A stretch of DNA of 64,000 nucleotides, taken from Thermoleophilia bacterium (GTDB lineage Bacteria > Actinomycetota > Thermoleophilia > RBG-16-64-13). The notes beneath the pieces are model-generated. The model saw nothing but the letters and a program-made list of their open reading frames with translations, had not been told where the DNA came from and did no database searches. The stretch covers positions 6,288-70,287 of the forward strand of contig JBMNPM010000007.1 in NCBI GenBank assembly GCA_050943595.1, in the 5' to 3' direction. Made by a program: the position numbers and the translations under genes. Below, one piece after another: positions 2,766-55,307 of the stretch. Numbering within the stretch: the first letter of the stretch is position 1; the number at the start of each line of letters is the position of its first letter.

Positions 2766-3695
2766 TCACTGTTCTCCAACGTAGTCGGTCGGCCAAGTCA
2801 TCTGCAAGACCAATCCACGCCCCTGGGACTTCCCGCGGTACATCAAATCGTCGGCAAGCCTGATGGCGAAGTCCGCGTCGATCGGAGGCTCCACGAAGGT
2901 GATCGCTCCGAACGTCGCTCCAACGTTCCAGCGCTCACCCATCTCCCTACCGAATGAACCAGCAACACGTGAGAGCGCAGTATGCGCTTCATCAGTCCCC
3001 GCTGCGCTCAACAAGAGACCGAACTCGTCGCCACCAAGCCGAGCAGCAGTATCGACAGCGCGAAGTTCACGCTCGATCGTCTCTGCAACCGCTTGAAGAA
3101 GCCTGTCACCCTCTGAGTGTCCGTGCGTATCGTTCACCTGCTTGAAGTGATCCAGGTCTAGGTAGGCGATGGTGAAGGGTTGCCCGTGTCTTCGGGACCT
3201 GGAGACCTCCTGCTCCACCCGCTCTCTGAAGACGCGGGCATTGGCGATGCCGGTCAGAGAGTCCCTGCGTGAGAGCGCACGCACACGCTCATGCGCCCTC
3301 CGGACAACGGCGACCAGCTCGTTGATGCTCAGGAAGAAGAGGAGCCGCACGGTCGTGTTCCAAGCAGGAATCCACTCCGCGGAGTACGTACGTCCCGTAG
3401 CTTCCAAGTAGCCCCAGATTACTGCCCCTGCGACCGCTGCCAAGCGGCCCGCATTCCGCGAGATGAAGGCGCCTGCGAAGAGCACCGGGAACAGATAGAA
3501 GACCGAGAAGCTGAGCTCTTCACCGGTGAAATAGTCGAGCAGGGCCACGAAGCCCAAGAGAAGTAGGCAGAGACCGGCTCGAACCAACAACGGTGTCGCG
3601 GCGATGCGACGTGCAAGAGAGGGCGCCCTGCTCGGGATTGCAGCCCGCACCGAGGATGGGCGGTCATCCGATCCGCTGTCCCGCGCAACCGCCAA
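2766..3695 (-). CDS. Membrane-associated diguanylate cyclase (GGDEF, motif GGDEF, I-site RAVD).
   Basis: Hydrophobic N-terminus, then DSLTGIANAR...ARLGGDEFGLLL...GKSQGRG. Confidence 0.75.
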   Translation of the reverse strand: MAVARDSGSDDRPSSVRAAIPSRAPSLARRIAATPLLVRAGLCLLLLGFVALLDYFTGEELSFSVFYLFPVLFAGAFISRNAGRLAAVAGAVIWGYLEATGRTYSAEWIPAWNTTVRLLFFLSINELVAVVRRAHERVRALSRRDSLTGIANARVFRERVEQEVSRSRRHGQPFTIAYLDLDHFKQVNDTHGHSEGDRLLQAVAETIERELRAVDTAARLGGDEFGLLLSAAGTDEAHTALSRVAGSFGREMGERWNVGATFGAITFVEPPIDADFAIRLADDLMYRGKSQGRGLVLQMTWPTDYVGEQ

Positions 3696-6164: not shown

Positions 6165-7169
6165 TCAGCGACGCCTACTATCCAGAAGGCGGCCCAAAAG
6201 CATAGCGAAACACAACGCAAGAGCGGAACTCGCCCACATTAGCCTGACGGCGTTCCGAATATCCGCGGAGCCGGCCGGCCGCCCCGACTCGCCGATGAAC
6301 GGAGCCGCCACCTCGCGGCCGTCGCGACTCACCGGTCCTCCCAAGCGCACCCCGAGGGCTCCAGCAAAGGCGGCCTCCGCCAAGCCTGCGTTCGGACTGA
6401 CATGTTTCCTGCCGTCAAGACGCACCGTCCGCATCACATCACCCCAACTTCGCCCGCGAAGGCCGGCGGCAAGCCCCACAAGCAGGACGCTCAACCGGGC
6501 AGGCAGATAGTTGGCTGCATCGTCGAGACGGGCCGACGCCCAGCCGAAACGGAGATAGCGGGCGTTCTTGTATCCGAAGGTCGAATCGAGCGTACTGATG
6601 GCTTTAAAGGCTACGGCAGCGGGAGCTCCACCTATCGCTGCATAGAGGAGCGGTGAAATCACCCCGTCGACCGTGTTCTCAGCTACGCTTTCCACAGCGG
6701 CTCTGGCCACACCGCTCTCGTCCAAGTCGTCGGTGTCACGCCCCACTATGCGGGCCACCGCCCGGCGGGCGCCCGGCAGGTCTTCCCGGTTGAGAGCCAG
6801 GCGGACGGCTTCCGCGTGAGTGGCGAGATCGCGTGAAGCGATGGCCGTATATATCAGGAGAATAGAGACGAGATCGCCGACACCCGGGTTTATTAGTCTC
6901 CCCCCACGCTCCAAAGCCATAGCAGTCGCTGTGCTGCCAAGAACAATTGCGGCAGCCGTTAAGACACCTGCGTTCCTCTCGTCAGATACGCAGCGACGCA
7001 TCGGCTCTTCGAGGGCGACGGCGGACCGTCCCATCAGCTCCACGGGGTGGGGCCATGAGAGAGGATCCCCGAGCACCAAGTCCAAGCCCCAAGCACACAA
7101 AACTCTCCCCCAGAGCTTCACGATCCTCTCTTCACGATCCTCTCTCTTCTGCAAGTAGATCATCCGCAT
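6165..7169 (-). CDS. cbiB: Adenosylcobinamide-phosphate synthase CbiB/CobD.
   Basis: WGLDLVLGDPLSWPHPVELMGR and membrane topology typical of CbiB. Last gene of the B12 transport/salvage operon. Confidence 0.8.
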   Translation of the reverse strand: MRMIYLQKREDREERIVKLWGRVLCAWGLDLVLGDPLSWPHPVELMGRSAVALEEPMRRCVSDERNAGVLTAAAIVLGSTATAMALERGGRLINPGVGDLVSILLIYTAIASRDLATHAEAVRLALNREDLPGARRAVARIVGRDTDDLDESGVARAAVESVAENTVDGVISPLLYAAIGGAPAAVAFKAISTLDSTFGYKNARYLRFGWASARLDDAANYLPARLSVLLVGLAAGLRGRSWGDVMRTVRLDGRKHVSPNAGLAEAAFAGALGVRLGGPVSRDGREVAAPFIGESGRPAGSADIRNAVRLMWASSALALCFAMLLGRLLDSRRR

Positions 7170-8271
7170 GCCGCCACGTCTTCAGGCCCATCGCGACGGC
7201 CTTTTCGTACAGCACCCGGTTCTTCACATTCGTCTCGCCGTAGTCCTGCAGGCAGTTGATCACCGCGTCGCACGACTCAAGGCGGGCTATCGCAACCTGT
7301 AGTGTCTCATCGCGGATCGTCGTGAAGCCCGGCTCGCTGATAACCTCAGTGGCCAGCTCTGCAGCCAACTGAAAATCGATATCGTTCTCATGCAGAATGC
7401 CGGTAACAAACGGCACACCCTGCTTCTGCAGCGCGCGATATTCCTCAATGCCCGTCCCGCCGCCGGCGATCACAAACACTCTCGCTTCACCCTGCGGTCT
7501 ACCCAGCTCAACGCTCCCGAACAGTGGGTTATAGCTGCCATCTACCAGATCATATAGCGCATGTATCAGCTCTCTCTTGAATATGTCTTTTGGCGAACCA
7601 TAGTGCTCAATGAACTCTCCCCTGACACACATCACAACATCCGAGATCTTCTGTGCCAGATCCAGTTCGTGCATGGACATGACGACAGCGATACCCCGCA
7701 ATTTGGCCATGCTGCGGAGGATGTCAAGGAGCTCGAGTTGATAACGTATGTCGAGAAAGGACGTCGGTTCATCCAGAACAATGATCTGCGGCTCTTGACA
7801 GATCGCCCGTGCCAGCAGGACCCTTTGCCGCTGCCCATCGCTGATCCGTGTGAAGTCCCTGTCCCGCAGGTCCCAGGTGTCGACCAATTCCATCGCTTCT
7901 CTGGTCTGCCGTTTATCATGCTCAGAGAGAATGCCCAAGCGCCCCGTATATGGGTAGCGACCGGTCGCAACGACGTCTTCACAGGTCATCAGTTCTGTTC
8001 TCAGCCTCTCGGTAAGCACCACGGCCACTTCGTGGGACATGTCTTTGTTGGTCATGTCCTCAATCGACCGATTATCGATATATACAGTGCCGTAGATACT
8101 CTTGAGGTACTTGGTGATGGTCTTCAGTATCGTAGTCTTCCCAGAACCATTCGGTCCAATCAAGGTGAGAATCTCACCGGCATTCAGCTGCATCTTTATA
8201 TTCTTGATCAGAGGCTTTCCGTCATAACCGACGGCCAGCTGATCCGTATAGAAGTAATACTGCTCGCTCAT
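7132..8271 (-). CDS. ABC transporter ATP-binding protein (FecE/BtuD-like) fused to an unassigned ~130-aa C-terminal domain.
   Basis: Walker A GPNGSGKTT, ABC signature LSDGQRQR, Walker B IIVLDEPTS, H-loop. Residues ~255-379 (RVFVIAGGGTGIEE...VPFVTGILHEND...) are not part of a canonical ABC ATPase. Confidence 0.8.
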   Translation of the reverse strand: MSEQYYFYTDQLAVGYDGKPLIKNIKMQLNAGEILTLIGPNGSGKTTILKTITKYLKSIYGTVYIDNRSIEDMTNKDMSHEVAVVLTERLRTELMTCEDVVATGRYPYTGRLGILSEHDKRQTREAMELVDTWDLRDRDFTRISDGQRQRVLLARAICQEPQIIVLDEPTSFLDIRYQLELLDILRSMAKLRGIAVVMSMHELDLAQKISDVVMCVRGEFIEHYGSPKDIFKRELIHALYDLVDGSYNPLFGSVELGRPQGEARVFVIAGGGTGIEEYRALQKQGVPFVTGILHENDIDFQLAAELATEVISEPGFTTIRDETLQVAIARLESCDAVINCLQDYGETNVKNRVLYEKAVAMGLKTWRHADDLLAEERGS

Positions 8272-9341
8272 GTGCGGTTTGCCCTACGCCTTCTAATCAT
8301 GACGTATAGCACCACCGGAGCACCAAACGCAGCCGTGACAGAGCTGAGGACCAATTCTGTCGGAGCAAATGCCGTTCTTGCTATCAGATCACACCCCAGA
8401 CAGAAGACGGCCCCTCCCAAGAAGCACGCCGGAATCATGACAATCGGCTTCGCCGTCTTCAAAGCGGCTTTTATCACATGGGGAACCGCAACACCAACAA
8501 ATGCGACAGGTCCGGCAAAGGCAGTCACACAGGCAGCCAACAAACTCGAGAGCACTACCAACATCACCCGGAACGCCCTGACATTGACACCCATACTCTG
8601 CGCATAGTTCTCGCCCAGCTGATATGCCCCGATAGGCTTAGACATCAAAAACACCACGACCGAGGTGACCAGCACTACGGCCGTCATCACACCGACATCA
8701 CCCCAAGCAATGCCGGAGAAACTACCGCGGGACCAGTTGTGCAGATTCACGATGTTGGCGTCGTCGGCAAAAGTGATCAGGAAATCGGTGATGGCGGAGC
8801 ATATGTACCCGATCATCACGCCACAGACAATCAACATCGACATTCTCGCCACTCTTCTCGCTATCAGGAGCACGAACCCCATCGAAAGCAGCGCGCCGGC
8901 AAATGCCGCCAGAACAAAGAATCCGGAGCTGACCGTCTGATACGCATCGAGCACCGTGATCATGACGATCGCGACCGTCAGCTTAGCGCCCGATGAGATT
9001 CCCAAGATATAAGGACCCGCGATGGGGTTGTTGAAGAAGGTTTGCAGCAAGAAGCCGGAAAGAGCCAGTGCGCCGCCCAAAACCACGGCGGCGATCAACC
9101 GTGGAAACCGGATCAGCCAAATGATCTTCCCCTCTGTTGATTCGCCCCCCTGCTCGATGATTGCCCGCCATAGTGTGCTGGGCGATAGCGAGAAACTGCC
9201 GAGGGTTATGTTAAGAACCGCCAGCAAAAACAACAGAATAACGAGGCATACAAACACGATGGCGATCCGTGACCGGATCAGCGCTTTCTCAGGAGTAACG
9301 GCAGAGATGTCGGCCTGCGCAGTGGAGTTCGCACGCCTCAT
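8268..9341 (-). CDS. FecCD-family ABC permease (BtuC-like).
   Basis: ~10 TM helices and conserved FecCD motifs (GPYILGISSGA, CGVMIGY). Stop/start coupled with neighbours. Confidence 0.8.
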   Translation of the reverse strand: MRRANSTAQADISAVTPEKALIRSRIAIVFVCLVILLFLLAVLNITLGSFSLSPSTLWRAIIEQGGESTEGKIIWLIRFPRLIAAVVLGGALALSGFLLQTFFNNPIAGPYILGISSGAKLTVAIVMITVLDAYQTVSSGFFVLAAFAGALLSMGFVLLIARRVARMSMLIVCGVMIGYICSAITDFLITFADDANIVNLHNWSRGSFSGIAWGDVGVMTAVVLVTSVVVFLMSKPIGAYQLGENYAQSMGVNVRAFRVMLVVLSSLLAACVTAFAGPVAFVGVAVPHVIKAALKTAKPIVMIPACFLGGAVFCLGCDLIARTAFAPTELVLSSVTAAFGAPVVLYVMIRRRRANRT

Positions 9342-10579
9342 TGCAACTTGTACATGAAAGACAGCTTCTCAAGATCATCGCCACCCACAAGCATCTGGTG
9401 GATGTCGGCAGTCATCAAACCGAGTTTTGTGGTCTCCTGATAGAGGTTCTGCTCGGTACACCATACGTTGCCGGTCTTAACAGCCTTAAAATCAGCCAGA
9501 AGGTTGCTCTTGCCGATGAGTTGATCAATAGTGAAAACTCCACCATCTATCGTACTATTGTATATTATGAAATCAGCATCCTTGGCCGCAGCATAAAATG
9601 CCTCAAATTCCATGGTAACAGTTGATGTCGCTACCGTTGGATCTCCCAACTCATCAAATATATAGTTACCCCCAGCAAGATCTATCATCTTGGTGACATA
9701 GTCTCCCGGCTTTCTGACGACTGCTGATCCCATAGAGTTGATATAGAAGAATGCCACAGTTTTGCCGGTATTTTCAAGGTTCGATACGGAATCCAGATAA
9801 TCAATTTGGTCGTTAAATATGTTCTCTGCTACGTCTTCCTTACCCATCAAAGCGGCATATAGCTTTATCCACTCTGTACGACCCAAAGGATGTTCTTCTA
9901 AACTCGATTGCTCAACGAGTACCGGGATTCCGATCTCCTGCAGTTTTTCCTTTACTTCGGGAGTATGATTGATCATGGTTGACTCGATCGCCAACCTACA
10001 GCCGGTCGCCAATATCAGCTCGTAGTCCGGCCTGCTGTATTTCCCCGCGTACAAAATGTCTCCGTCCTGCATAGCCGTCTTGGCGTTCTCCACATACCAG
10101 CCGTCGGCCTTGGTACCGGATAGTGCAATGGCATCCAATGAATCCAGGGCGTCAAACAGGCACATGGTAGAAGTCGCGACAAGATAGATGTGATCGACGG
10201 GCCGCTTTAAGATCACAATATCCTCATCGACATCATCCGGGGTATCGGCGTCTTCCGGAACAACCAGGAACCGATCCCCGTTCGATATCGAGATCAACGC
10301 GTATCCCCCATTGAAGTAGTCCACGCTGAAATTCTGTGCATATTCGAGGTCCATTGTGGATGTCGGCTGCCAACCGTTTCCAAGCGGATCTCTGCCTGTC
10401 GCGCCGTCATCCGGTGGAGCGCTGGAACAAGCGCTTAGCAGCCCCAGCAACATGAGGATGGCTAGGAATACGGCTACACGGGCTGCACGGGCTACACGTA
10501 TTCTCTTCACGATTCGGCGCTCCCTTCCCAGCGTACTTTCCGGCGTCGGGCGCGCACGAAGACACTCACTTGGTGCCAA
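9338..10579 (-). CDS. Periplasmic (lipoprotein) substrate-binding protein, class III (BtuF/FecB-like).
   Basis: Lipoprotein signal LLGLLSACSS and Peripla_BP_2-like architecture. Adjacent to the permease/ATPase genes. Confidence 0.7.
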   Translation of the reverse strand: MAPSECLRARPTPESTLGRERRIVKRIRVARAARVAVFLAILMLLGLLSACSSAPPDDGATGRDPLGNGWQPTSTMDLEYAQNFSVDYFNGGYALISISNGDRFLVVPEDADTPDDVDEDIVILKRPVDHIYLVATSTMCLFDALDSLDAIALSGTKADGWYVENAKTAMQDGDILYAGKYSRPDYELILATGCRLAIESTMINHTPEVKEKLQEIGIPVLVEQSSLEEHPLGRTEWIKLYAALMGKEDVAENIFNDQIDYLDSVSNLENTGKTVAFFYINSMGSAVVRKPGDYVTKMIDLAGGNYIFDELGDPTVATSTVTMEFEAFYAAAKDADFIIYNSTIDGGVFTIDQLIGKSNLLADFKAVKTGNVWCTEQNLYQETTKLGLMTADIHQMLVGGDDLEKLSFMYKLQ

Positions 10580-11465
10580 CCGCCTTTAATGTCTGGGAGT
10601 CGAAGTGCAGCGTATAGTCGATGAGGTGAGGCTGACTCATCGCGGTCGTGTCGGCACTCACTGCGAGATCCGAGTCGAGCTGAGAGACGGGGATCTCGAA
10701 TGTGGAGTTCCCCTCAGTAGTGGTGGGCAGGTATTTAATTCCGTCCACCAGCATAAAGTCGTAATTCGGGCTGCTCCACCTGATCACTGCCGTCATGTCG
10801 CCGCCCTCTATCGTAAGTTCAGTGGGACTCTGAATAGTCGCTCTTCCCGAGCCACCCTCCAGCGACACTTCAACCATGTACTGCCCATCCGCAGGCTGTT
10901 CGCCGGCGCTCTGCCCGTCCGTGGACCCCGCGGCAAGAGCCTCCTTGGGTATCGAGGAGGACTGGAACACCAGTACCCTGTCGTACCATTTTTGCTTCCT
11001 GATACTCCAGGCCGCACAGTCGATCTCCTTGTCGAGTGCCTCCACGGGCACCGTGTAGGTGTATTTGCCCTTGGCGTCTTCGACGTAATAGATGCACTTG
11101 TCGTCCGTGTCGGCCAACGCCTGCTCACCGGTGCCCATATAGAGCTTCTCGTAACCGTGGCCGCTCAACGTGAGCACTGCCGACATCTTTCCGTCCTTCA
11201 CGATGAGCTGCGCGTCGATGATCCGGAACATCGACGAGCTTGAAGAAACGGTGATGGCGTATTTACCATCTTTGATTTGGTCCCCATGAATCGGAACCAA
11301 TGCCGCCGCCTGCTGATCGGCAACAGAAGGGGCAACGGTAGTGGCAGTCGTGATGGTGGTAGTAGTCGTGGAGGAAGCTTCTCCGCACCCGGCTACGAAC
11401 ACTCCTATCAACAGCACGATCAGTATGGGAGTCAGTATCTTCTGTATGGTTGCCCGTCTTCTCAT
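10566..11465 (-). CDS. Surface lipoprotein with two tandem ~110-aa homologous domains; function unknown (candidate ligand-capture protein).
   Basis: Signal + lipobox (FVAGCGEAS), T-rich linker, then an internal duplication: DGKYAITVS...LIVKDGKMSAVLTLSGHGYEKLYMG versus DGQYMVEVS...LTIEGGDMTAVIRWSSPNYDFMLVDG. Confidence 0.5.
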   Translation of the reverse strand: MRRRATIQKILTPILIVLLIGVFVAGCGEASSTTTTTITTATTVAPSVADQQAAALVPIHGDQIKDGKYAITVSSSSSMFRIIDAQLIVKDGKMSAVLTLSGHGYEKLYMGTGEQALADTDDKCIYYVEDAKGKYTYTVPVEALDKEIDCAAWSIRKQKWYDRVLVFQSSSIPKEALAAGSTDGQSAGEQPADGQYMVEVSLEGGSGRATIQSPTELTIEGGDMTAVIRWSSPNYDFMLVDGIKYLPTTTEGNSTFEIPVSQLDSDLAVSADTTAMSQPHLIDYTLHFDSQTLKAVGTK

Positions 11466-11579
11466 TGCCCCTCCTTAAGAGGCTGCTGAAATACCAGGGC
11501 GCACACCATATTCCGAGGTGTGCGCCCTGGTCACCAATACTCCAACCAGCCGCCAATACTCCAGCTAGTGCCGGCTACA

Positions 11580-12542
11580 TCACTTCACGCCCTGGATCGC
11601 ATCCTTGACATGCTGAACGTAGATATCCTGGATCTCGTTGAACTGGCCAAGCCCCTCAAGGATGACCTCGACTTTAAAGCCCTCGGCCTCGAGAGTCGTC
11701 TTCCACGATCCCTCTTCATCGCCGGCCATGTCGTTATTGGCGTGGTCACCCGAGACCACCATAAGCGGCTCGAGCACTACCCTTTTGTATCCACCGGTCT
11801 TCGCAGCCGCGACGACATCGGTGAGTGTAGGAGTGCCCTCTACCGTGCCCACCAAGTAGTGGGGGTGTCCCGCCGCGGTGAGCTTGGTCTGAAGGTTACC
11901 GTACACCGCGTTTGCTTCGTGCTCCGTACCATGCCCCATGAATACCACCGCAGTACTGCCATCCATGTAAGAGGCCGTCCTCTCAGTGATGGACTTGATG
12001 ACCGCTGCAAAATCCTCGTCGCTGGTGAGTAGTGGTTTGCCTATTGCAACCTCGTCGAATTTGGTCTTGTACTTCTCCACCTCGGCCACCATGTCATCGT
12101 ACTCAAAGCCGTTCATCAAGTGGGTAGGCTGTACGATCACCGTCTTGATGCCGTCGGCCACGAGCTTGTCCAGCGCCTGCGTCACGTTGTCGATTTTGAT
12201 CCCGTCCCGCTCCGCAAGCTTGTCGATTATCATCTGCGCCGTGAAGGCCCGCCGAACCTCGTAATCAGGGAAGTTTTCCCCGATGGCCGCTTCGATAGCA
12301 CCGATCGTGATGTTTCTGCTGTCGTTGAAGCTGGTCCCGAAACTGACCACCAGTATGGCCTGGTCTTTCGCAGCCGCGGAGCCCTCGTCTTTTACCACTG
12401 TGGAACCCTCATCTTTTACCGCCGCGGCGCCCTCGTCCTTTACCGCGGAGCCGTTATCCGACTCGCCGCAACCCACGAGAACCGCGGAGAGCAGTACCAC
12501 TGCAATTGCAGCAATGATTCCGGCGATGATTCTCTTTTTCAC
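11580..12542 (-). CDS. cbiK: Sirohydrochlorin cobaltochelatase CbiK, exported (lipoprotein) form with (A)VKDEG triple repeat linker.
   Basis: CbiK fold motifs (LVVSFGTS, MGHGTEH, VSGDH) preceded by a signal peptide + Cys lipobox (LVGCGESD) and 3x VKDEG repeats. Confidence 0.7.
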   Translation of the reverse strand: MKKRIIAGIIAAIAVVLLSAVLVGCGESDNGSAVKDEGAAAVKDEGSTVVKDEGSAAAKDQAILVVSFGTSFNDSRNITIGAIEAAIGENFPDYEVRRAFTAQMIIDKLAERDGIKIDNVTQALDKLVADGIKTVIVQPTHLMNGFEYDDMVAEVEKYKTKFDEVAIGKPLLTSDEDFAAVIKSITERTASYMDGSTAVVFMGHGTEHEANAVYGNLQTKLTAAGHPHYLVGTVEGTPTLTDVVAAAKTGGYKRVVLEPLMVVSGDHANNDMAGDEEGSWKTTLEAEGFKVEVILEGLGQFNEIQDIYVQHVKDAIQGVK

Positions 12543-12864
12543 TGTTCCTCTCTTCTTCGTTCACGTTGCATTAGCCGCCTAAACTCTTTCTGTAGGAATC
12601 CACGCGTCCGTGCGTCAGTCCCTCCTTTCGACGGTGTCTGTGCCAGATCCGTCCCACCTGAGCAACTCCTGTGTCTAGTTGCTAAGCAAAAATCAGGAAT
12701 GCGCTTGGAAGAACCAAGACGAAACTGAAGAGCTCGAGATCATGCCTATGAGGCTGCTGAAAAACGAAGCCCCGGCTGCCAAACGGACGGTAATGGGGGG
12801 GATTCGGCGGCACTGAGCAACGTCTTTACGGCAACAACCACTCTCCGGATGTCACCGCCTTAAG

Positions 12865-13023
12865 AGGCTGCTGAAAAACGAAGCCCCGGCCCCCAGAACG
12901 CGCTGAGCAGCACGATAGTACGTCATCGGTTGCACGAATAGCGTTGCTATTCGTGCTCCCTCTATCCTTCTCTCGCGCGTGCTGATCGTGTTCTGGCGGC
13001 GAAGCGTCATATTTCAGCAGCTT
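12865..13023 (-). mobile_element. MITE-like repeat, copy 1 (TIR AGGCTGCTGAAA / TTTCAGCAGC; palindromic core).
   Basis: ~160 bp element, near-identical (reverse orientation) to the copies at 40651-40812 and 55091-55280. Inserted 4 nt downstream of the riboswitch terminator. Confidence 0.65.
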
Positions 13024-13026
13024 ATT

Positions 13027-13066
13027 AAAAAAATGGCGCCCTTGGGAATATCATCCCAAGAGCGCC
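13027..13066 (-). terminator. Rho-independent terminator (riboswitch expression platform).
   Basis: Minus-strand GGCGCUCUUGGGA-loop-UCCCAAGGGCGCC followed by U7. Confidence 0.7.
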
Positions 13067-13127
13067 GTATTCTGCCCTAGTCACCTAGTACCACACCCCT
13101 GATCTCGAGGGTATGCTTAGCCTCTCG

Positions 13128-13290
13128 CCTACGGGTAGGTATTCTGGCTCCCGGATCACTCTACCGGCTGCGCCTTCCCATCCCTGCGGACAGTGGCATC
13201 AGCAGCCTTCGTCCCCGATCACAGCGGCGGCACCGCGACGGACTCTCACCGTCTTCCCTTGTGGCTGTATTCCAGCCACCCGTAGCCACG
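13128..13290 (-). ncRNA. Cobalamin (AdoCbl) riboswitch.
   Basis: Minus-strand transcript contains AAGGGAAGACGGUGAGAGUCCGUCGCGGUGCCGCCGCUGUGA, B12 box GCCACUG, GGGAAGGC and AGCCAGAAUACCUACC. P1 CUACGGGUGG/CCACCCGUAG. Followed by a terminator. Confidence 0.85.
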
Positions 13291-13386
13291 CGTATTATTA
13301 ACATGCGGTCTGCAGTGCGTCAATATTCCACGCGCCCCCAGCCGCTCCATGAAAATATGAATCCGCCCGGCAGGCGCATAGGGTAG

Positions 13387-14949
13387 TCACAATCCCATCC
13401 CAACGATGGTTGCCAGCAGGTTCGTGTCAAGATAATCGGATATGTGGTCGGTGAGGCGGTCGATGGAGGCCGTGCCGGCCCGGACCGGCTCTCCGGAGGA
13501 TTGAGCCTCCGCTCTCGCCTTCTCCGGCAGGCCGGCCGTCCTCCTGAGACTATTGAGGAACCGGTCTCGCACGGCTAGATGATCGAACAGACCATGGACA
13601 TACGAGCCAAAGACTGTGCCATCGAGCGACACTGCACCTTCGTCATGAGAATCCCTGTCCGAACCTGCAGTTCCGACGTGGCCGCCTCTCTTCTTAAGAC
13701 GAAGAAGCGGGCGGGCGCTTGGCCCACGTCGGCTCCTTCCCATATGGATCTCATAGCCACTCACGGGCGTCCCTTCCGGGCCGATGCCGGCTCCTGTAAG
13801 CTCACCGGTCACCCGCACCGTCCGTTTGTCGCCACCGAAGACCGTCTCTATATCCAGCAATCCGAGTCCTTGAGCCGAGAAGACCGTTGACTCTACTCGA
13901 TTAGGGTCAAGAATGACCTTGCCCAGCATCTGATAGCCGCCGCAGATGCCCACCACCGGCACCCCCTCCGCCGCCTTTGCAACGATCGCGTCCGCCAACC
14001 CGCTCTCCCGTAGCCAGCGTAGGTCGTCGATTGTGCTCTTGGTGCCCGGAAGAATGATGGCGGCCTTTCCCTCGAGCTCACGGGGAGAGGTGACGAAAAC
14101 CACCGAGACATCCTGTTCGTCGGAGAGAGCGTCGAAGTCCGTGTAGTTTGAGATAAAGGGCAGTCGCACGACAGCGATACGGACGGCGGCATTAGGCTTC
14201 GTGCGTCTCTGCCGGTCTTCGATACCCAGAGAGTCCTCCTCGTCTCCTCTCCAATCACTCAGATAGGGGATCACTCCCAGGGTGGGGATAGCCGTCCGTT
14301 CTTCTAAGAAGCGAATGCCGGAATCGAGAAGGGACGCGTCACCCCGGAACTTGTTGATCACGAAAGCCCGCACCAGCGCGCGCTCCTCCGGTTCCAAGAG
14401 TTCGACCGTCCCGAAGAGTGAAGCAAACACGCCGCCCCGATCGATATCGGCGACCAGGAGTACTGGAGCCCGCGCATACAGGGCCACTTTCATGTTGACG
14501 ATGTCGTGGTCGCGCAGGTTGATCTCGGCGATGCTCCCCGCACCCTCCACCACGATCAGGTCGTTGGCCGCCCGCAGCCGATCCAGCGCAGCGGTGACCA
14601 CCGGCCAGACCTGTCTTTGATAGGCGTGATACTCCCGCACCGACATGTGCCCCACCGGCCGGCCGAGAACGATCACCTCACTGCCGGTTTGGGAGCTGGG
14701 CTTGAGGAGGATGGGGTTCATGTCCACGTGCGGCTCGATACCGGCCGCGTCGGCCTGGTAGGCCTGAGCCCGACCCAACTCACCGCCTTCGGCCGTGACG
14801 AAGGAGTTAAGGGCCATGTTCTGCGCCTTAAAGGGGGCAACCCGTAAGCCACGGCGCGCATACATGCGACAGAGCGCGGCGGCAAGAACGCTCTTGCCGA
14901 CGTGTGAGCCCGTGCCGGCCACCATGACCACCTGCGCGGGGGCGACCAT
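13387..14949 (-). CDS. cobQ: Cobyric acid synthase CobQ/CbiP.
   Basis: VMVAGTGSHVGKS nucleotide-binding motif and a GATase-1 C-terminal domain. Start ATG at 14949 (MVAPAQV) preferred over the longer ORF. Confidence 0.85.
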   Translation of the reverse strand: MVAPAQVVMVAGTGSHVGKSVLAAALCRMYARRGLRVAPFKAQNMALNSFVTAEGGELGRAQAYQADAAGIEPHVDMNPILLKPSSQTGSEVIVLGRPVGHMSVREYHAYQRQVWPVVTAALDRLRAANDLIVVEGAGSIAEINLRDHDIVNMKVALYARAPVLLVADIDRGGVFASLFGTVELLEPEERALVRAFVINKFRGDASLLDSGIRFLEERTAIPTLGVIPYLSDWRGDEEDSLGIEDRQRRTKPNAAVRIAVVRLPFISNYTDFDALSDEQDVSVVFVTSPRELEGKAAIILPGTKSTIDDLRWLRESGLADAIVAKAAEGVPVVGICGGYQMLGKVILDPNRVESTVFSAQGLGLLDIETVFGGDKRTVRVTGELTGAGIGPEGTPVSGYEIHMGRSRRGPSARPLLRLKKRGGHVGTAGSDRDSHDEGAVSLDGTVFGSYVHGLFDHLAVRDRFLNSLRRTAGLPEKARAEAQSSGEPVRAGTASIDRLTDHISDYLDTNLLATIVGMGL

Positions 14950-14965
14950 CAGTACTCGATCGCCA

Positions 14966-16444
14966 TCAGTACTCAATCCCCCGGCGCGCCCAGATGTCCG
15001 GATAGGGATGTTTATGAGCAACCATCTGCGTTACAAGGTCGGCGGCGGCGCACAGCTCATCCGGCGCATATCGGCCGGTGGCAACCACCTCCACATGAGC
15101 CGGCCGCTCCTGCAGCGTTGAGAGCACCGAAACGATATCGAGAAGACCGTAATGGAGAGCCACATTCAGCTCGTCAAGAATCACAAGGTCCCAATCGCCC
15201 GAGAACATCAGTTCGTGCGCACTGTTCCAGGCCTGCACCACCCCCCGCTTATCTTCACTGTGCGCCGCCCCACAAAGAAGCCCTGTCGAACGCGAGGCAG
15301 GACGGACTACATGGACTCCGGCCAGACGCAGCCCGGCCAGCTCACCGCTTTCGGTCCCGCCTTTGAGGAACTGGACCATGGCCACCGTCAGTTCTTGACC
15401 GCGGGCACGAAGCGCCAGCCCTACCGCAGCCGTCGTTTTACCCTTACCCTCTCCTGTATAGACCTGGAGAAGACCCCGGCTCAAGCGCTGACGGCCGTCC
15501 GCTTCAGCGCCGGCTGCGCCTGGTTCAAGTAAGGATGACCCGGCGCCGCTCAAAGAAGCAGAACCGAGGGACTGCGTGGAGTGCGGCCGGCACCCCAAGT
15601 GGCGCCCCAAGTAAGACAACAGCTCCTCAACGCTCCTGACGGTCCTTCCCGGTGCCACCTGGGTGTCAACAGCATCGCCCTCAGGCCGCGCCACTACAAT
15701 GGCGGCGGCCCCGGCCGCGCGACACGCTTCGAGCTTGGCGTTCAACCCACCGGCCTCACCACTCTCTTTCGTGACCAACACGCCTGCCCCAAGGTGGCGG
15801 AGAAGAGCGGCGTCTAACTCTGCTCCGGTCGGCCCTTGCATGGCCAGAATATCTGCGGGAGCCAGTCCAAGTTCGCGACAGTGCGCAATGGACTCCTCCA
15901 CCGGCATCACCCGGGCAACGAGACGCCTGCCGGCTGCTCGAACGGCCTCTACATAGGTACGAAGCGTGCGGGTGCCGACGGTAACCAGGATCGCACTCTC
16001 ACCCCCGCTTTCAACTGCACGCGCCGCGGCAGTAGCGGCATCGGGTACAAGCATCGCGTCCTCAGGAAGCACCACTCTCGGACGCTCCAAGCGAACGTAG
16101 GGGACACCTAAACGATCGCATGCTCCACGAGCCAATGCAGAAATCTGTTGGGCAAACGGATGGGTAGCGTCGACCACCGCCTCGCTGCTCTCCAGAAGCG
16201 TCTCCAACCCGATCTCATCAAGCGCGCCGACGCGCACCCGCAACCGCCCCAAACGAGAGGCATCCGCCCGCCGGAGATCCCCCTTGGAGACCTTAGAGGC
16301 CCTGGGGAAATCCTCTGCTGTGGTGTTACGAGCGAGGTCCGCGCCGTGTTCGCTGACCACACTGAGCAGGACGTCGTACCCTCGCTCTTGGAGAAGCGAG
16401 GCCGCCAAGCGGGCATCCGAAGTGCCACCCAGAAGAAGAATCAT
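14966..16444 (-). CDS. cbiJ: Fusion protein: cobalt-precorrin-6A reductase CbiJ/CobK (N-terminal) + cob(I)yrinic acid a,c-diamide adenosyltransferase CobA/BtuR (C-terminal).
   Basis: N-terminal ~250 aa match CbiJ (MILLLGGTSDAR...). C-terminal ~180 aa match CobA/BtuR (GLLQVYTGEGKGKTTAAVGLALRA...ILDELNVAL). Confidence 0.75.
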   Translation of the reverse strand: MILLLGGTSDARLAASLLQERGYDVLLSVVSEHGADLARNTTAEDFPRASKVSKGDLRRADASRLGRLRVRVGALDEIGLETLLESSEAVVDATHPFAQQISALARGACDRLGVPYVRLERPRVVLPEDAMLVPDAATAAARAVESGGESAILVTVGTRTLRTYVEAVRAAGRRLVARVMPVEESIAHCRELGLAPADILAMQGPTGAELDAALLRHLGAGVLVTKESGEAGGLNAKLEACRAAGAAAIVVARPEGDAVDTQVAPGRTVRSVEELLSYLGRHLGCRPHSTQSLGSASLSGAGSSLLEPGAAGAEADGRQRLSRGLLQVYTGEGKGKTTAAVGLALRARGQELTVAMVQFLKGGTESGELAGLRLAGVHVVRPASRSTGLLCGAAHSEDKRGVVQAWNSAHELMFSGDWDLVILDELNVALHYGLLDIVSVLSTLQERPAHVEVVATGRYAPDELCAAADLVTQMVAHKHPYPDIWARRGIEY

Positions 16445-17292
16445 GCCTTCTGTCTCCCAGACAAAAACTCAGCATCTTTTACCGAATAACCCCGCGTAGT
16501 CACCATGCGCCCATCGCGGACCATCGTAGCGGTGTTGCCGACGATGATCACAGTCCTCATATCCAGGTCGTCCTCCTTCAGGCACTCAAGGGTAGTGACC
16601 CTCACCGACTGGCCCTCACGCAGAGCGTCCCGGACCACACCTACAGGCGTATCTGCGGCTCTACCCGCGCGGAGAAGCGCCAGAGCGCGCCTGAGCGGCT
16701 CCACCCGCCGGCTGCTGCGCGGGTTGTAGAGGGCGATGACAAAGTCGCCGGCAATAGCGCCGTTCAGCCGACGCTCGATCACCGCCAACGGCGTGAGAAG
16801 ATCACTTAGGCTTATCACGGCAAAGTCGTTCATGAGAGGAGCGCCCAGGCAGGCGGCTGCCGCAGAGGCAGCGGTGATCCCAGGAACGATCTCTACTTCT
16901 ACACAAGACTTTACCGGAAGCAACTCCAGCACAAGACCAGCCATGCCGTAGATACCGGCATCGCCGCTGCTTATCATGGCCACATGAGAGCCCTGCAGAG
17001 CCGCCTCAATCGCCAAGGTCGCCCGCTGCACCTCCCTACGCATGCCGCTGCTGATGGTGCGTTTGCCGGCAATCAACGGAGCCACGAGTTGCAGATACGG
17101 CTGGTAACCCACCACCACATCGGCCGCTCTGAGGGTCGCCTCCGCTGCCGGTGTCAGGTGATCTCTTCCGCCGGGGCCAATGCCCACGAGCCACAGACAT
17201 CCAGGGCGAGAGCCACAGTGACTCCCTCCCGGACCGTCCGCGGCCCGAGCAGCTTCATCTCGGACCCGGCCAGCAATGCCGCCGGTATGCAT
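16441..17292 (-). CDS. cbiH: Cobalt-factor III / precorrin-3B C17-methyltransferase CbiH.
   Basis: LWLVGIGPGG...GDAGIYGMAG SAM-MTase (tetrapyrrole methylase) motifs. Annotated start overlaps cbiG; true start probably later (~17200). Confidence 0.8.
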   Translation of the reverse strand: MHTGGIAGRVRDEAARAADGPGGSHCGSRPGCLWLVGIGPGGRDHLTPAAEATLRAADVVVGYQPYLQLVAPLIAGKRTISSGMRREVQRATLAIEAALQGSHVAMISSGDAGIYGMAGLVLELLPVKSCVEVEIVPGITAASAAAACLGAPLMNDFAVISLSDLLTPLAVIERRLNGAIAGDFVIALYNPRSSRRVEPLRRALALLRAGRAADTPVGVVRDALREGQSVRVTTLECLKEDDLDMRTVIIVGNTATMVRDGRMVTTRGYSVKDAEFLSGRQKA

Positions 17293-18011
17293 ACTGCCGC
17301 TACTCCTGTCGTCGTTTCCACGAAGTTGGGGTGGCGCAGAGACTCCTGCAGATCTCGGATGCGTGAGCGGGACACCACGTTAAGGGGGACACCCAGTACC
17401 CGCGCAGCCTCATGAAGCCCAGGCTCGTCCGCCTTGAGGTCGATGGTGGACAGAGCGCGCACGTCTGCACGTGAATGACCCGAGCCGGCAAGCGCTTCGT
17501 CGATGGCCGCGAGAGCGCACGCAGCCGTCACCCCGCGCCGGGCGCCGATGCCGACTGTAACCCTCCGGCGGGCCTCACTTCCCGTAGTCACCACTGCCGT
17601 CCCGCCGGTAATACCGGCTATCGACTCGGCCAACCGATTGGCTCCTCCTTCATGGCCACTCAGCAGGCTGATCACGTACCGGCCGCTATTGTCTACCACA
17701 ACCACGGCCGGATCGGTGAGCTTGGACTTCACCCAAGGCGCGATGGCCCGAACCATGATCCCACTGGCCATGATCCCCACAATGGCGGCGTGATCATCCC
17801 AGAGCGTGCCCACGAAATTGGGCAGCCCTCCTTCATACGTCCTGACCTCCGGTGACCTGCTCTTTGATATCGATTTCTGCGGAACCCACAGGGTGATCTC
17901 CTCCCGTCCGGTCTCCCGGCACAGCCTCGGCACCAACTCTCGGCCTAGAGTCAGCCCCTCCTCGGACACAGCCAGGATCGTGATGGCCCCAGGTCGCTCG
18001 AAGCGGGTCAC
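17154..18011 (-). CDS. cbiG: Cobalt-precorrin-5A hydrolase CbiG.
   Basis: CbiG-like sequence (ITILAVSEEG...VVVDNSGRYVISLLSGHEGGAN) in cbi operon position. Confidence 0.75.
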   Translation of the reverse strand: MTRFERPGAITILAVSEEGLTLGRELVPRLCRETGREEITLWVPQKSISKSRSPEVRTYEGGLPNFVGTLWDDHAAIVGIMASGIMVRAIAPWVKSKLTDPAVVVVDNSGRYVISLLSGHEGGANRLAESIAGITGGTAVVTTGSEARRRVTVGIGARRGVTAACALAAIDEALAGSGHSRADVRALSTIDLKADEPGLHEAARVLGVPLNVVSRSRIRDLQESLRHPNFVETTTGVAAVCIPAALLAGSEMKLLGPRTVREGVTVALALDVCGSWALAPAEEIT

Positions 18012-18871
18012 AGCGCCTCTTCCTTCCCAGCCTCTTCCTCCTTAGCCTCTCCCTCCCCGGCCCGGTATCCGTGCGAGAAGCTGCGATCGTACAGCTTCGA
18101 AGGCCCCCCTTCATTGCGCAAGACCTCGCCGACGAGAATCATAGCGGTGCGATCGATGCCGGCCTCAGCCACCAAAGCCGCGATGTCTCTCAGCGTGCCC
18201 CGCACGATGCGCTGTTCGGGCCACGTGGCCTTGTACACTACGGCGACAGGAGTTTCTTCCGGGTAGTGCGCACGGAGGGAACTCACGATGTCGGCCATAT
18301 GGTCCGCCGAAAGGAAGATGGCCATGGTGGACCGGTGGGCGGCCAGATCCGCCAGTGCCTCGGTCTGGGGTACGGGGGTCCGCCCTGCTGTGCGCGTGAT
18401 AATCACTGTTTGCGAAACCCCGGGCAGAGTCAACTCAGTGGCGATGGCAGCTGCCGCAGCAGAGAAGGAGCTGACCCCGGGCACCACTTCGTAGGGCACC
18501 CCCTCCTCGTCCAGCCGCGCCATCTGTTCGCCTATGGCGCCAAACAGGCCGGGGTCGCCGGTATGCAACCGTACCACCTTCCGCCCGGACCTATGACCGT
18601 CCACCATAAGGGAGACGATCTCATCCAGATGCATCCCCGCACTGTCGTAAATCTCCACTCCGGATGAGGCCCACGTGAGCACCTCCTTCGGCACCAGCGA
18701 CCCTGCGTAGATGACCACATCGGCTTCCTCGAGGAGCCGCCTGCCCCGCACCGTGATGAGTTCGGGGTCTCCCGGACCCGCTCCCACGAACCAGATCACT
18801 CCTTCTCCCCCTCTATCGCAGCCCTGCGCTTCGCCAATACGGTCGTGAAGTAATCGTACGACCCGGCCCAC
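18008..18871 (-). CDS. cbiF: Cobalt-precorrin-4 C11-methyltransferase CbiF.
   Basis: VIWFVGAGPGDPELITVRG...VVRLHTGDPGLFG. True start likely near 18770. Confidence 0.8.
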   Translation of the reverse strand: MGRVVRLLHDRIGEAQGCDRGGEGVIWFVGAGPGDPELITVRGRRLLEEADVVIYAGSLVPKEVLTWASSGVEIYDSAGMHLDEIVSLMVDGHRSGRKVVRLHTGDPGLFGAIGEQMARLDEEGVPYEVVPGVSSFSAAAAAIATELTLPGVSQTVIITRTAGRTPVPQTEALADLAAHRSTMAIFLSADHMADIVSSLRAHYPEETPVAVVYKATWPEQRIVRGTLRDIAALVAEAGIDRTAMILVGEVLRNEGGPSKLYDRSFSHGYRAGEGEAKEEEAGKEEAL

Positions 18872-19515
18872 GAACGCAGGTCGCTGGTGTGGTCCGCCGC
18901 TGCCTGACCGGTTCTCCGCATTGCCACCGCATCGATTTCCAAACCAGAGACCAGATCGGCAAGGCAGTCGAGATAAGCAGCCGCCTTCATGAACACCACA
19001 TTGGGGATGGTTTCCAACCAGTGCTCCATGTCGTCGTTGGGAGCCTCTGACCAGATGAGCAGAGGCTCACGCCCCTGAGCAAGAGGAATACCCGCGGATG
19101 CAGCGCAGGCGGAGATGGAAGTGACGCCCGGGATGGTCTCCACAGGCACCTGGGGGACCTCCTCGCGCAGAGCCGCGGCTACGTACCCCCAGGTGGAGTA
19201 GAGCGTGGGATCTCCAAGAGTGATGAAGACTGCCGAGCGACCGGCGAGCGCCTCACGGGCCAACGATCTCGCCGTGCGCGCCCATGCCGCTTCAAGCGTG
19301 CTTCGCACTTCGGTCATGGGGAGTTCGGGCGTGACGATCTCACAGTCCGGTGGCAGATAGGGCCGAGCTATGTCGAGAGCCAGACTGACCCCGTCCCCAC
19401 GTGCACTCGGAGCAACCACTACATCTGCCGTAGCCAGCACCTCAGTCGCACGTACGGTGAGCAGCCCAGGGTCGCCTGGCCCCACTCCCACACCGTAGAC
19501 CATCCCCACGGTCAT
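18796..19515 (-). CDS. cbiL: Cobalt-precorrin-2 C20-methyltransferase CbiL.
   Basis: MTVGMVYGVGVGPGDPGLLTVRA... Start ATG 19515 overlaps the cbiT stop (ATGA). Confidence 0.75.
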   Translation of the reverse strand: MTVGMVYGVGVGPGDPGLLTVRATEVLATADVVVAPSARGDGVSLALDIARPYLPPDCEIVTPELPMTEVRSTLEAAWARTARSLAREALAGRSAVFITLGDPTLYSTWGYVAAALREEVPQVPVETIPGVTSISACAASAGIPLAQGREPLLIWSEAPNDDMEHWLETIPNVVFMKAAAYLDCLADLVSGLEIDAVAMRRTGQAAADHTSDLRSWAGSYDYFTTVLAKRRAAIEGEKE

Positions 19516-20216
19516 CGGGGACCACCCTCCCGGGCCTCGAAGGCGTCGCCATCGTTGAGGGACCCGGCCAGTTCGGCCGAGACAATCCAAACGGGGTTCA
19601 AAGCATCGAAACGCAACTGTCTGCCGACAGCCACGCCACGAGCGATGCTCGCCTGAATGCAATCGAATCCCCGCCACCCCTCTCCACGCAGACACGAAAC
19701 GGTAGAGGACAGGGTCTCCACACATACGCACGGGCAGATAACCATACCCCCGGGTGACAGGATTGACGGCAAAGCAGCAAGTATCTCCGCCAGGCGACCG
19801 CCACTTCCCCCCACGAAGACCCGGTCGAAGCAGCCCAATCCGGCCCAGGCATCCGGCGCTTCTCCCGCGATCACCTGCACACGCGCGGATGCCGGCCGGC
19901 CGTAGTGTCCCGACTGATGAAGAAGCCCAAAATGCTCCAAGCCAAAATGCTCTAGATTTGCCTGCAGGACGGCCAGCGCCTCTCGATCTCTCTCGATAGC
20001 CACGACCTCACCACCCGGGCAGAGCAGGCACGCCTCCACGGTCAGACTGCCGCTTCCCGCGCCCACGTCCAGCACCCGGGCGCCTGGATGCAGGCGCGCT
20101 TTAGACATGAGAAGGGCCCGCACCTCGGCTTTGGTCATGGGCACATCCCCGCGCACAAACTGGTCATCAGGTATGCCGAAAAAGCCGTCGCACAACGCCT
20201 TCCCGTCGACAGTCAT
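19512..20216 (-). CDS. cbiT: Cobalt-precorrin-6B C15-methyltransferase (decarboxylating) CbiT.
   Basis: SAM MTase motif VLDVGAGSGSLTVEA. Contains an in-frame 15-bp tandem duplication (HFGLEHFGL). Confidence 0.75.
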   Translation of the reverse strand: MTVDGKALCDGFFGIPDDQFVRGDVPMTKAEVRALLMSKARLHPGARVLDVGAGSGSLTVEACLLCPGGEVVAIERDREALAVLQANLEHFGLEHFGLLHQSGHYGRPASARVQVIAGEAPDAWAGLGCFDRVFVGGSGGRLAEILAALPSILSPGGMVICPCVCVETLSSTVSCLRGEGWRGFDCIQASIARGVAVGRQLRFDALNPVWIVSAELAGSLNDGDAFEAREGGPR

Positions 20217-25432: not shown

Positions 25433-25472
25433 GGGCAACGGCACCCACCGACCGCTCTGATTCCCTGATACG

Positions 25473-30600: not shown

Positions 30601-30734
30601 AGCCTTCTCCGTCGTTGTGGAGGCAGAGGCGGGAAGGCCAGGGGTAAACCAAGCTCCCAGGGCACTAGGAACCAGGACACCAGTGAGCCGACCGCCTCTC
30701 TCCCTCGAAGTTGCGGTAGCAGTGCATACTCTCG

Positions 30735-30915
30735 GCCGGTCTTCGGGCTTGTAGGCAGATCCGTCGTGAGACGAGGGGTTCTACTGGTCATCGCTTCCCA
30801 GCCCTAGTTGAGCCAGTGCTTAACTGATGACTTTCGTTCCTACTTACCGCTGCGGGGCAGCTCCGGAATTGCACCGGATTCCCGTGTGAATTGTGAAGCG
30901 TAGGCCACAAATCAC
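30735..30915 (-). ncRNA. Candidate cobalamin riboswitch (divergent variant) in the nrdD 5' leader.
   Basis: Minus-strand transcript contains GGGAAUCCGGUGCAAUUCCGGAGCUGCCCCGCAGCGGUAA (the GGGAA..CGGUG.AA.UCCG...CCCGC...GUAA core), AGCACUGG (B12-box-like), GGGAAGCG and CGGAUCUGCCUAC. A possible anti-RBS (GCCUUCC) lies before the GGAGAAGG RBS. Confidence 0.5.
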
Positions 30916-31178
30916 GCCGACAGCCATTACAGTTTATCCAGGCAAAGGGAGGGCAGTCAAGTATCGGAGGGCGGTTCGAAAAGCGGTCAAGTATCCGTTG
31001 TGGGGAATCCGTTATGGGAGATGCTCAGGCCGGCAACCCTTAGGCGACGCCGTCGGCCTCCACGCGCAACGGCGATCAACACGCATTGGAACAATTCGTC
31101 GCGCTCCGTCGCGCTCGTCAGGTGAGAGGGTTTGAGTAGCCGGGGAAGGCTCAGCTAGAAACAAATCTTGGAGAGTAA

Positions 31179-40650: not shown

Positions 40651-40812
40651 AGGCTGCTGAAATATGACACTTCGCCCCCGGAACGCGGGTCGGCACGCGC
40701 GAAAAAAGGATAGAGGAAACGCGAATAGCAGCGCTATTCGCGCGACCGATGAGGCACTATCGTGCTACTCAGCGCGTTCTGGGGGCTGGGGTTTCGTTTT
40801 CAGCAGCCTCCT
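40651..40812 (+). mobile_element. MITE-like repeat, copy 2.
   Basis: AGGCTGCTGAAATATGACACTTCGCC...CGCGAATAGCAGCGCTATTCGCGCG...GTTTCGTTTTCAGCAGCCTCC; ~85-90% identical to copies 1 and 3. Confidence 0.65.
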
Positions 40813-55280: not shown

Positions 55281-55307
55281 TAAGTGGCAAGAACCGGGCC
55301 AGCCCCC

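Follow-up and report, generated by a model that had tools for sequence, protein, structure and literature searches.

A 64,000-nt stretch of the metagenome-assembled genome (MAG) of a Thermoleophilia bacterium (GenBank assembly GCA_050943595.1, contig JBMNPM010000007.1, positions 6,288 to 70,287; an identical protein is on record as MGI5939986.1), hereafter called the window, carries on its minus strand a cobalamin riboswitch and an intrinsic terminator ahead of six genes. Our results favor the interpretation that these form an adenosylcobalamin (AdoCbl) transcription-terminating OFF switch over an operon for the capture and import of corrinoids in a single-membrane (Gram-positive-type) bacterium, and we consider this interpretation probable. 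Computation backs the regulatory anatomy, the protein folds, the export signals, the conserved linkage of the genes and the gene fusions. The features on which the argument depends are as follows.

13294..13323, minus strand: promoter-like site, TTGACG-18 nt-AATAAT, from a consensus scan
13117..13298, minus strand: cobalamin riboswitch aptamer (RF00174), full length with the B12 box
13067..13116, minus strand: linker of the expression platform; the fold of 13125..13020 shows hairpins of 8 bp (13115..13092) and 4 bp (13088..13077)
13027..13066, minus strand: intrinsic terminator, a 13-bp stem (13066..13035, nine G-C pairs) with a 6-nt loop, followed by A and U7 (T7 at 13033..13027)
12860..13028, no strand assigned: inverted-repeat element resembling a miniature inverted-repeat transposable element (MITE), with a 161-nt core (12864-13024) between TTAA flanks (12860-12863 and 13025-13028)
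11580..12542, minus strand: exported CbiK-family lipoprotein with signal peptide, lipobox LVGC, a linker of three VKDEG repeats and a full chelatase fold
10566..11465, minus strand: lipoprotein of 299 aa with two diverged NEAT-fold domains (residues about 56-178 and 190-296)
9338..10510, minus strand: class-III (Peripla_BP_2) substrate-binding lipoprotein of 390 aa, lipobox LSAC (PF01497, 6.5e-29)
8268..9341, minus strand: FecCD/BtuC-type permease (PF01032, 2.1e-77; BtuC model NF003001, 209 bits against a cut-off of 334)
7132..8271, minus strand: ATP-binding cassette (ABC) ATPase with an extra C-terminal domain of about 125 aa (PF00005; corrinoid ABC transporter ATPase NF007082, 201 against a cut-off of 537)
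6165..7169, minus strand: cbiB, adenosylcobinamide-phosphate synthase, last gene of the transcription unit (PF03186, 1.3e-96; TIGR00380, 217 against a cut-off of 166)

The cobalamin switch

A cmscan search of the whole window placed RF00174 at 13298..13117 (minus strand) with 105.4 bits, far over the gathering score of 31.5 (E 2.4e-25, model positions 1-189). The original prediction, made from the letters of the sequence, had read a cobalamin riboswitch from 13290 to 13128, and every element it listed is present in the covariance alignment (GGGAAGACGGUGAGAGUCCG, AUGCCACUG, GGGAAGGC and GAGCCAGAAUACCUACC), with the B12 box and core matching consensus columns at AUGCCACUG, GGGAAG..CGGUG..UCCG, GGGAAGGC and AGCCAGAAUACC. 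Initiation from the promoter-like site would place the transcription start just ahead of the inner P1 helix of the aptamer. Within the linker, the 8-bp hairpin is a candidate for the kissing-loop (P13) hairpin. The terminator, which the same prediction had described as a GC hairpin with U7, begins 50 nt after the aptamer; it was found both by a terminator scan, which returned four terminator-like sites against 0.8 expected, and in the folding of a 106-nt leader segment, whose centroid structure contains the hairpin (the segment as a whole has -43 kcal/mol). A terminator-based OFF mechanism would be the standard reading of such anatomy. When compared with other RF00174 riboswitches that act through an intrinsic terminator, the window shows the full consensus aptamer, the B12 box and the downstream terminator, and what stands out is only the length of the leader, which continues for about 485 nt after the terminator and holds the repeat element.

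Further support for the switch comes from a relative (loci L006 and L007) whose lipoprotein is 75% identical to that of the window. There the promoter hexamers are invariant, the aptamer is about 95% identical (104.9 bits against RF00174) and the terminator is conserved, with base changes in its stem in L006 that keep the pairing, and the linker sequence is largely kept in L006 as well. Right after the U-tract the two sequences are unrelated. Because promoter, aptamer and terminator persist up to exactly this point, with substitutions that preserve pairing, we conclude that the switch is real and under selection.

The operon and its surface proteins

Searches of Pfam and NCBIfam bore out all of the gene identities proposed earlier. 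The suggestion that they make up a B12-repressed capture system with non-standard surface parts is strengthened by the recurrence of the genes together with the riboswitch, by the NEAT fold of one surface protein, and by fusions of that protein to the binding protein. The order CbiK homologue, tandem NEAT-like protein, binding protein, FecCD permease and ATPase with MJ0874 extension (the cassette) is identical in L006 and in four clostridial-type loci (L060-L063) despite unrelated neighbours, which together with the window makes six cassettes. RF00174 lies directly upstream on the same strand in L006, L007, L061, L062 and L063, and in L060 it is found at 57 bits with a permissive filter. Moreover, a family member of 1965 aa with nine repeats, which has no cbiK beside it, has its gene between an RF00174 match (102.5 bits) and the same set of transporter genes, after which come cbiD and cbiG. 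All told, a cobalamin riboswitch is present at eight of eight loci with readable upstream DNA, the fusion loci L066 and L067 being left aside since their upstream sequence is too short. The cassette often lies inside cbi clusters, and L061-L063 have no adjacent cbi genes. In L060 a second cobalamin riboswitch (13261-13444, plus strand) precedes a plain Peripla_BP_2/FecCD importer a few kb from the cassette; one genome therefore has both a plain and an accessorised B12-regulated importer.

The protein encoded at 10566..11465 consists of two homologous halves (BLASTP 1e-8; hhalign profile-profile probability 98%, E 1.5e-13), as had been predicted. An AlphaFold2 model built with 35 homologues has a predicted local distance difference test score (pLDDT) above 90 in both domains, and each domain is the eight-stranded beta-sandwich of the NEAT fold. 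The original prediction had not recognised this fold and had allowed for a match of the domains to an unrelated, well-known family; what emerged is a tandem of NEAT folds. The protein is best described as belonging to a diverged NEAT-fold branch, with the fold of a tetrapyrrole carrier, and not as a certified member of the Pfam family. Invariant or near-invariant residues include a SSSSMF lip, Tyr105 and WYDR in domain 1 and GGSGR, AMS, His280 and Tyr284 in domain 2, together with the invariant Met79 and Met276. A profile search of 1.84 billion cluster representatives gave 2,543 matches at E <= 1e-3 and 951 at E <= 1e-30. At 50% identity the branch comprises some 950-2,500 clusters, most of them from Clostridia, the window protein coming from a Thermoleophilia MAG; its members have up to nine repeats, and no curated NCBIfam model covers the family. 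Cultivable carriers of close homologues include Harryflintia acetispora and Paratissierella segnis. In six of the eight longer members examined, the tandem module is naturally fused to a Peripla_BP_2 domain. No other evidence at hand speaks as strongly for a direct cooperation of the module with the binding protein, and the genomic context of the NEAT-like protein points to a corrinoid ligand.

The CbiK homologue matches PF06180 over profile positions 1-261 of 262 (302 bits, E 4.5e-90) and reaches 257.7 bits with the NCBIfam equivalog NF047852 (cut-off 400). Its nearest relatives of known structure are S. enterica CbiK (1qgo, 1.3e-52), P. gingivalis FetB (9b86, 2.4e-50) and the periplasmic CbiK of D. 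vulgaris (2xvx, 6.6e-41). His145, Glu175 and His207 (S. enterica numbering, counted from the alignment), which we take to be the catalytic residues of CbiK, align to GHG, VEG and GDHA. The N-terminal signal peptide and lipobox LVGC set it apart from a cytoplasmic enzyme, and signal peptides are present on all six CbiK homologues of the cassettes and on the binding proteins. Of these, FetB is a lipoprotein of the outer membrane; it binds porphyrins and acts as a Co and Mn chelatase towards a porphyrin analogue (PMC13065792). The two exported CbiKs of known structure, from D. vulgaris (2xvx) and P. gingivalis (FetB/IhtB, 9b86), share with the window protein the CbiK fold, a signal peptide, the catalytic residues and a gene beside a FecCD-type ABC importer; they have been read as haem or porphyrin binders or chelatases in double-membrane bacteria, whereas the window protein is a lipoprotein in a bacterium with one membrane, with the NEAT-like protein at its side and a cobalamin riboswitch ahead of it in every case. 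The CbiK encoded by the Desulfovibrio cbiK-cbiL locus is presumably the periplasmic form. The joining of an exported CbiK with a B12-regulated ABC importer would thus have a precedent, since a B12 element ahead of cbiK-cbiL and btuCDF in Desulfovibrio was reported in 2004 (PMC545781).

Permease, ATPase and class-III binding protein are encoded by consecutive genes, and with the latter the operon specifies three lipid-anchored extracytoplasmic proteins, the others being the CbiK homologue and the tandem NEAT-fold protein. For the binding protein we used the 390-aa start given by gene calls on identical contigs and not the longest open reading frame of 413 aa; BtuF- and IsdE-type proteins are typically about 270-300 aa, and that of the window is about 100 aa longer. 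The extra C-terminal domain of the ATPase had been noticed in the original prediction as something unusual. Its presence stands, but it is a known feature: homologues carry a precomputed match to PF27219 (MJ0874), and the match to the archaeal corrinoid ATPase model NF007082, which shares the extension, spans residues 11-347 and thus reaches into it (255-347). The domain taken alone has no match in the local Pfam copy or the PDB. The cbiB gene overlaps or abuts the ATPase gene, in the same order as in L006.

In its transporter class, its three-component layout and the ATPase extension, the system resembles the BtuFCD importer of B12, including the archaeal corrinoid type. The accessory proteins can be compared with two better known systems. 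In the Isd system of Staphylococcus aureus (NEAT receptors IsdA/B/C/H, the class-III lipoprotein IsdE and the permease IsdF), surface-anchored NEAT-fold domains are likewise encoded beside a Peripla_BP_2 lipoprotein and a FecCD-type permease and ATPase, and this arrangement therefore implies a relay of tetrapyrrole from surface receptor to binding protein. The cassette differs from Isd in being controlled by a cobalamin riboswitch and not by Fur, in using a lipid anchor and not sortase, and in its NEAT-like domains, which fall under the Pfam threshold, lack YxxxY, belong to a family also found fused to the binding protein and have presumably a corrinoid as ligand. In Bacteroides, the btu accessory lipoproteins BtuG, BtuH, BtuJ and BtuK are also extra surface lipoproteins inside riboswitch-controlled B12 uptake operons; they bind cobamides and act upstream of BtuF/BtuCD (PMC12751083). 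By analogy with the haem relay of the one and the cobamide-binding lipoproteins of the other, the ligand of the cassette would be a corrinoid that is handed from protein to protein. When cellular B12 is low the terminator would not form and the operon would be transcribed. The lipid-anchored NEAT-like domains, and probably the CbiK-like protein as well, would then bind corrinoids at the cell surface and pass them to the binding lipoprotein, as Isd NEAT proteins pass haem to IsdE. Import would follow through the BtuCD-like ABC transporter, and CbiB would feed incomplete corrinoids into the late pathway.

Several observations weigh against this interpretation. The lipoprotein scores 25.9 bits with Pfam NEAT (PF05031; E 1.4e-5), below the threshold of 32.8, while some of its relatives have a precomputed match. 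Neither domain aligned significantly by hhalign with the PDB-verified NEAT sequence of IsdC, so that the similarity to canonical NEAT is at the level of the fold only, and the family profile found no sequence match among PDB chains. The haem-ligating YxxxY of canonical NEAT domains is absent from both domains, whose last strands read WYDRVLVF (domain 1) and HLIDYTLHF (domain 2). Every NEAT domain characterised so far binds haem, and both structurally characterised exported CbiK homologues, CbiK-P of D. vulgaris and FetB, are described as porphyrin- or haem-binding (PMC13065792). The retention of all three catalytic residues suggests that the CbiK homologue may be enzymatically active and not simply a binder. 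Compared with BtuFCD, the transporter components are all under the NCBIfam BtuC/BtuD equivalog cut-offs, though BtuC and the corrinoid ATPase are still their best matches, and the binding protein has no NCBIfam match, none BtuF-specific, and no PDB sequence relative. The riboswitch association is drawn from eight loci and is no census. Finally, a promoter could lie inside the repeat element of the leader, as the sigma-70 scan used here catches actinobacterial promoters poorly.

Alternatively, the cassette might import haem or another metalloporphyrin, with the NEAT-like protein and the exported CbiK as haem binders or dechelatases, as proposed for IhtB/FetB and CbiK-P, and with B12 control reflecting a shared tetrapyrrole or metal economy. 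The haem-binding record of the NEAT fold favors this view, as does the fact that the closest exported CbiK structures are FetB, a porphyrin-binding protein encoded in an ABC-transporter locus, and CbiK-P. We nevertheless regard haem import as unlikely. All eight loci with readable upstream DNA have the cobalamin riboswitch and none has a recognisable iron-related neighbour, the cassette is frequently found within cbi clusters, its best transporter matches are BtuC and the corrinoid ATPase, and the canonical haem-ligand motif is missing.

We give still less credence to the exported CbiK as an active extracytoplasmic chelatase in a system that supplies cobalt, or that takes scavenged tetrapyrroles or corrinoid precursors lacking a metal or carrying the wrong one and repairs or metallates them before import. 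The intact equivalents of His145, Glu175 and His207 are consistent with such an activity, FetB offers an example of it (PMC13065792), and B12 riboswitches commonly control cobalt supply (PMC7689651). The transporter, however, is of the BtuCD/FecCD type for large chelates and not a cobalt-ion transporter, and the nine-repeat family member is paired with the same transporter genes without any cbiK. To our knowledge there is also no environmental pool of metal-free corrinoids. Most improbable of all is that the gene encodes the plain biosynthetic cobaltochelatase for the cbi genes around it, a protein either cytoplasmic or translated from an internal start, with uptake left to the downstream genes: the catalytic residues are conserved and neither the cbi cluster of the window (13387-25495) nor that of L006 has a further chelatase gene, yet a canonical signal peptide and lipobox are kept in six of six cassettes, including L061-L063 with no cbi genes beside them, the gene always travels with the transporter, and its equivalog score is well short of the cut-off. 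Each of these alternatives is less consistent than corrinoid capture and import with the riboswitch seen at every readable locus, with the type of transporter or with the export signals that all cassettes share.

The repeat element in the leader

The element at 12860..13028 had been predicted to be MITE-like, to span 12865-13023 and to begin 4 nt after the U-tract. It is a genuine dispersed repeat, whereas its boundaries had to be moved: the last two T of the U-tract are already part of the right-hand TTAA, and the element thus begins inside or at the end of the tract. It is short and non-coding, with terminal inverted repeats ([G/C]AGGCTGCTGAA ... TTCAGCAGCCTG), and forms one long imperfect hairpin (z-scores of the fold -7.5 for one strand and -7.8 for the other). 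Two more full copies are present in the window, at 40651-40813 and about 55094-55282, both in the opposite orientation to the leader copy and 87% and 82% identical; in the second, 10 nt are duplicated internally and a further terminal piece is attached. Two smaller pieces lie within the operon.

12747..12781, no strand assigned: solo terminal fragment of the element (about 30-35 nt), in the same orientation and 91% identical to 12861-12895
11475..11531, minus strand: intercistronic region between the CbiK and NEAT-like genes, with a hairpin and then an element fragment directly before the ribosome-binding site of the next gene

An exact 27-mer from the first of these occurs twice, with none expected by chance, and blastn agrees. 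The second consists of a 15-bp hairpin (11531..11493, fold z-score -5.7) followed by a 17-nt fragment of the element (11491..11475, matching at 17 of 17 positions). A strong intercistronic hairpin is also seen in L060, with weak ones at the other loci.

Outside the window, another Thermoleophilia MAG has an exact 24-mer of the element end twice, and both copies align over the whole element. A scan of metagenomes with a 20-mer of the element gave 52 loci. Six of these (L009, L010, L012, L033, L040 and L056) were discarded, since the terminal 20-mer of the element is the reverse complement of a sequence that encodes GFVFQQP in ABC ATPase genes and had matched there by chance. The metagenome loci, the genome loci and the window (L001-L058 included) together yielded 25 distinct full-length copies. 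These are uniform in length, have unrelated flanks with mostly CTAG or TTAG borders, and many abut stop codons. Identical flanking 4-mers, mostly CTAG, were seen at seven of the 25, and TTAA/TTAA at the leader copy, with the caution that CTAG could belong to the inverted repeat. Beside the truncated copies in L053 and L021 there was no transposase domain of an autonomous parent, only ordinary metabolic genes, and permissive E-values over 12500-13120 gave no Rfam match.

Bacterial MITEs and long-hairpin dispersed repeats, such as Correia, ERIC and IS5- or IS630-derived MITEs, are similar in their uniform small size, terminal inverted repeats, intergenic location, TA-containing 4-nt flanks and many copies with unrelated surroundings. 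Besides the missing parent transposase and Rfam match, the element differs from them in a bias of pairing towards one strand. Among the 25 aligned copies the consensus structure has 54 pairs and -74 kcal/mol on one strand against 38 pairs and -46 kcal/mol on the other, and deviations at Watson-Crick pairs are G-U rather than A-C by 78:20. Such a bias may point to selection acting while the element is single-stranded, as RNA or DNA, and would not be expected of a transposon acting purely at the level of DNA. In the leader copy the better-folding strand is the transcribed one.

We found one further match between the element and the switch. Ten nucleotides of the aptamer at 13199-13208 (AGGCUGCUGA, just 5' of the B12 box) are fully complementary to the element terminus, which occurs three times downstream in the same transcript (e.g. 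at 12751-12760 and 12865-12874). With about 0.4 such matches expected by chance in 900 nt by our own estimate, this may mean nothing.

The element would have arrived as a mobile repeat at a TTAA at the end of the U-tract, leaving the switch intact. Most likely the insertion is incidental, because the relative at L006/L007, where alignment of the orthologous leader shows the element to be absent, has the same switch and operon, and because a scan limited to a sigma-70-like consensus detected no promoter-like site on the operon strand, either from the terminator to the first gene or within the operon. The original prediction had itself pointed to relatives lacking the element as a test of its relevance. 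An effect on mRNA stability is a minor possibility. More broadly, the 161-nt RNA hairpin or an internal promoter could alter expression, by stabilising or processing the read-through transcript or by uncoupling it in part from the riboswitch. The location of the element in leader sequence that is transcribed, where the mRNA carries the strand that folds better, the three pieces in the same orientation in one operon (12860-13028, 12747-12781 and 11475-11491) and the complementarity to the aptamer speak for a role of this kind. We find it an improbable one, given the relative that does without the element, the lack of promoter-like sites in the consensus scan and the chance expectation for ten-nt inverted matches; nor did the copies elsewhere show an orientation bias relative to flanking genes, as judged by crude gene calls.

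Genomic setting and significance

The operon lies within an anaerobic cbi cluster that contains cobD, cbiA, C, D and T, three methylases, cbiG, cbiJ-btuR and cobQ. At 14966-16444 and 20213-22285 cobalamin-pathway genes are fused, joining CbiJ with a BtuR/CobA adenosyltransferase and CbiD with a tetrapyrrole methylase domain. A second full RF00174 match (30936..30717, minus strand, 89.4 bits) precedes nrdD-nrdG-metE (25473-30600, minus strand). These genes encode a B12-independent ribonucleotide reductase and methionine synthase, and they run without obvious gaps into cobD-cbiA...cobQ; it is possible that nrdD-nrdG-metE through cobQ form one long B12-repressed unit. The G+C content of the cassette (0.49-0.57) is lower than that of the neighbouring cbi genes (0.62-0.65) and, once its own lineage is set aside, the closest relatives with a name or label come from the Clostridia (about 55-64% identity), and for these reasons the data suggest that the cassette was acquired horizontally.

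Elsewhere in the window, G+C falls to 0.36 at 32001-34000, against a window mean of 0.575, inside a 1037-aa gene for a seven-transmembrane GGDEF-EAL protein (31179-34292), and it is also low (0.47) in the first 2 kb. Four GGDEF-domain (cyclic-di-GMP) proteins are encoded within 36 kb (978-2363, 2766-3695, 31179-34292 and 35242-36393). Three tRNA genes lie on the plus strand at 47416-47506, 47514-47587 and 60545-60633, the first two adjacent.

Taken singly, neither the riboswitch nor the terminator nor a leader with a mobile repeat is out of the ordinary; the accessory proteins are. Literature searches, incomplete in coverage, gave among the papers listed no relevant one on NEAT domains together with cobalamin, vitamin B12, corrinoid or cobalamin riboswitch, nor on CbiK together with lipoprotein, riboswitch and corrinoid. 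The two extra surface proteins make up a widespread and so far uncharacterised kit, which probably serves to capture B12-like molecules outside Gram-positive cells. With more reserve, we propose that a large unrecognised branch of the NEAT fold may serve as the cell-surface corrinoid receptor of single-membrane bacteria and, with the exported CbiK-like lipoprotein, may do for B12 what the Isd relay does for haem, delivering to a BtuF-like binding protein. If so, the exported CbiK proteins, which have long been puzzling, would move from haem handling to corrinoid handling.

Gut and sediment communities are shaped by the way bacteria compete for B12 and B12 analogues, which are in short supply. 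Surface capture of B12 is understood only for Bacteroides, through BtuG/H/J/K, and for Gram-positive-type cells usually only BtuF and the energy-coupling factor (ECF) type CbrT are considered. The surface proteins described here are small and, minus the lipid anchor, soluble, and thus suited to binding assays and crystallography. Should the tandem NEAT-like lipoprotein and the exported CbiK bind corrinoids, a well-studied fold would gain a new class of ligand, the exported CbiK proteins would gain a function, and there would be a testable model of B12 piracy for the Clostridia, in which the family is abundant.

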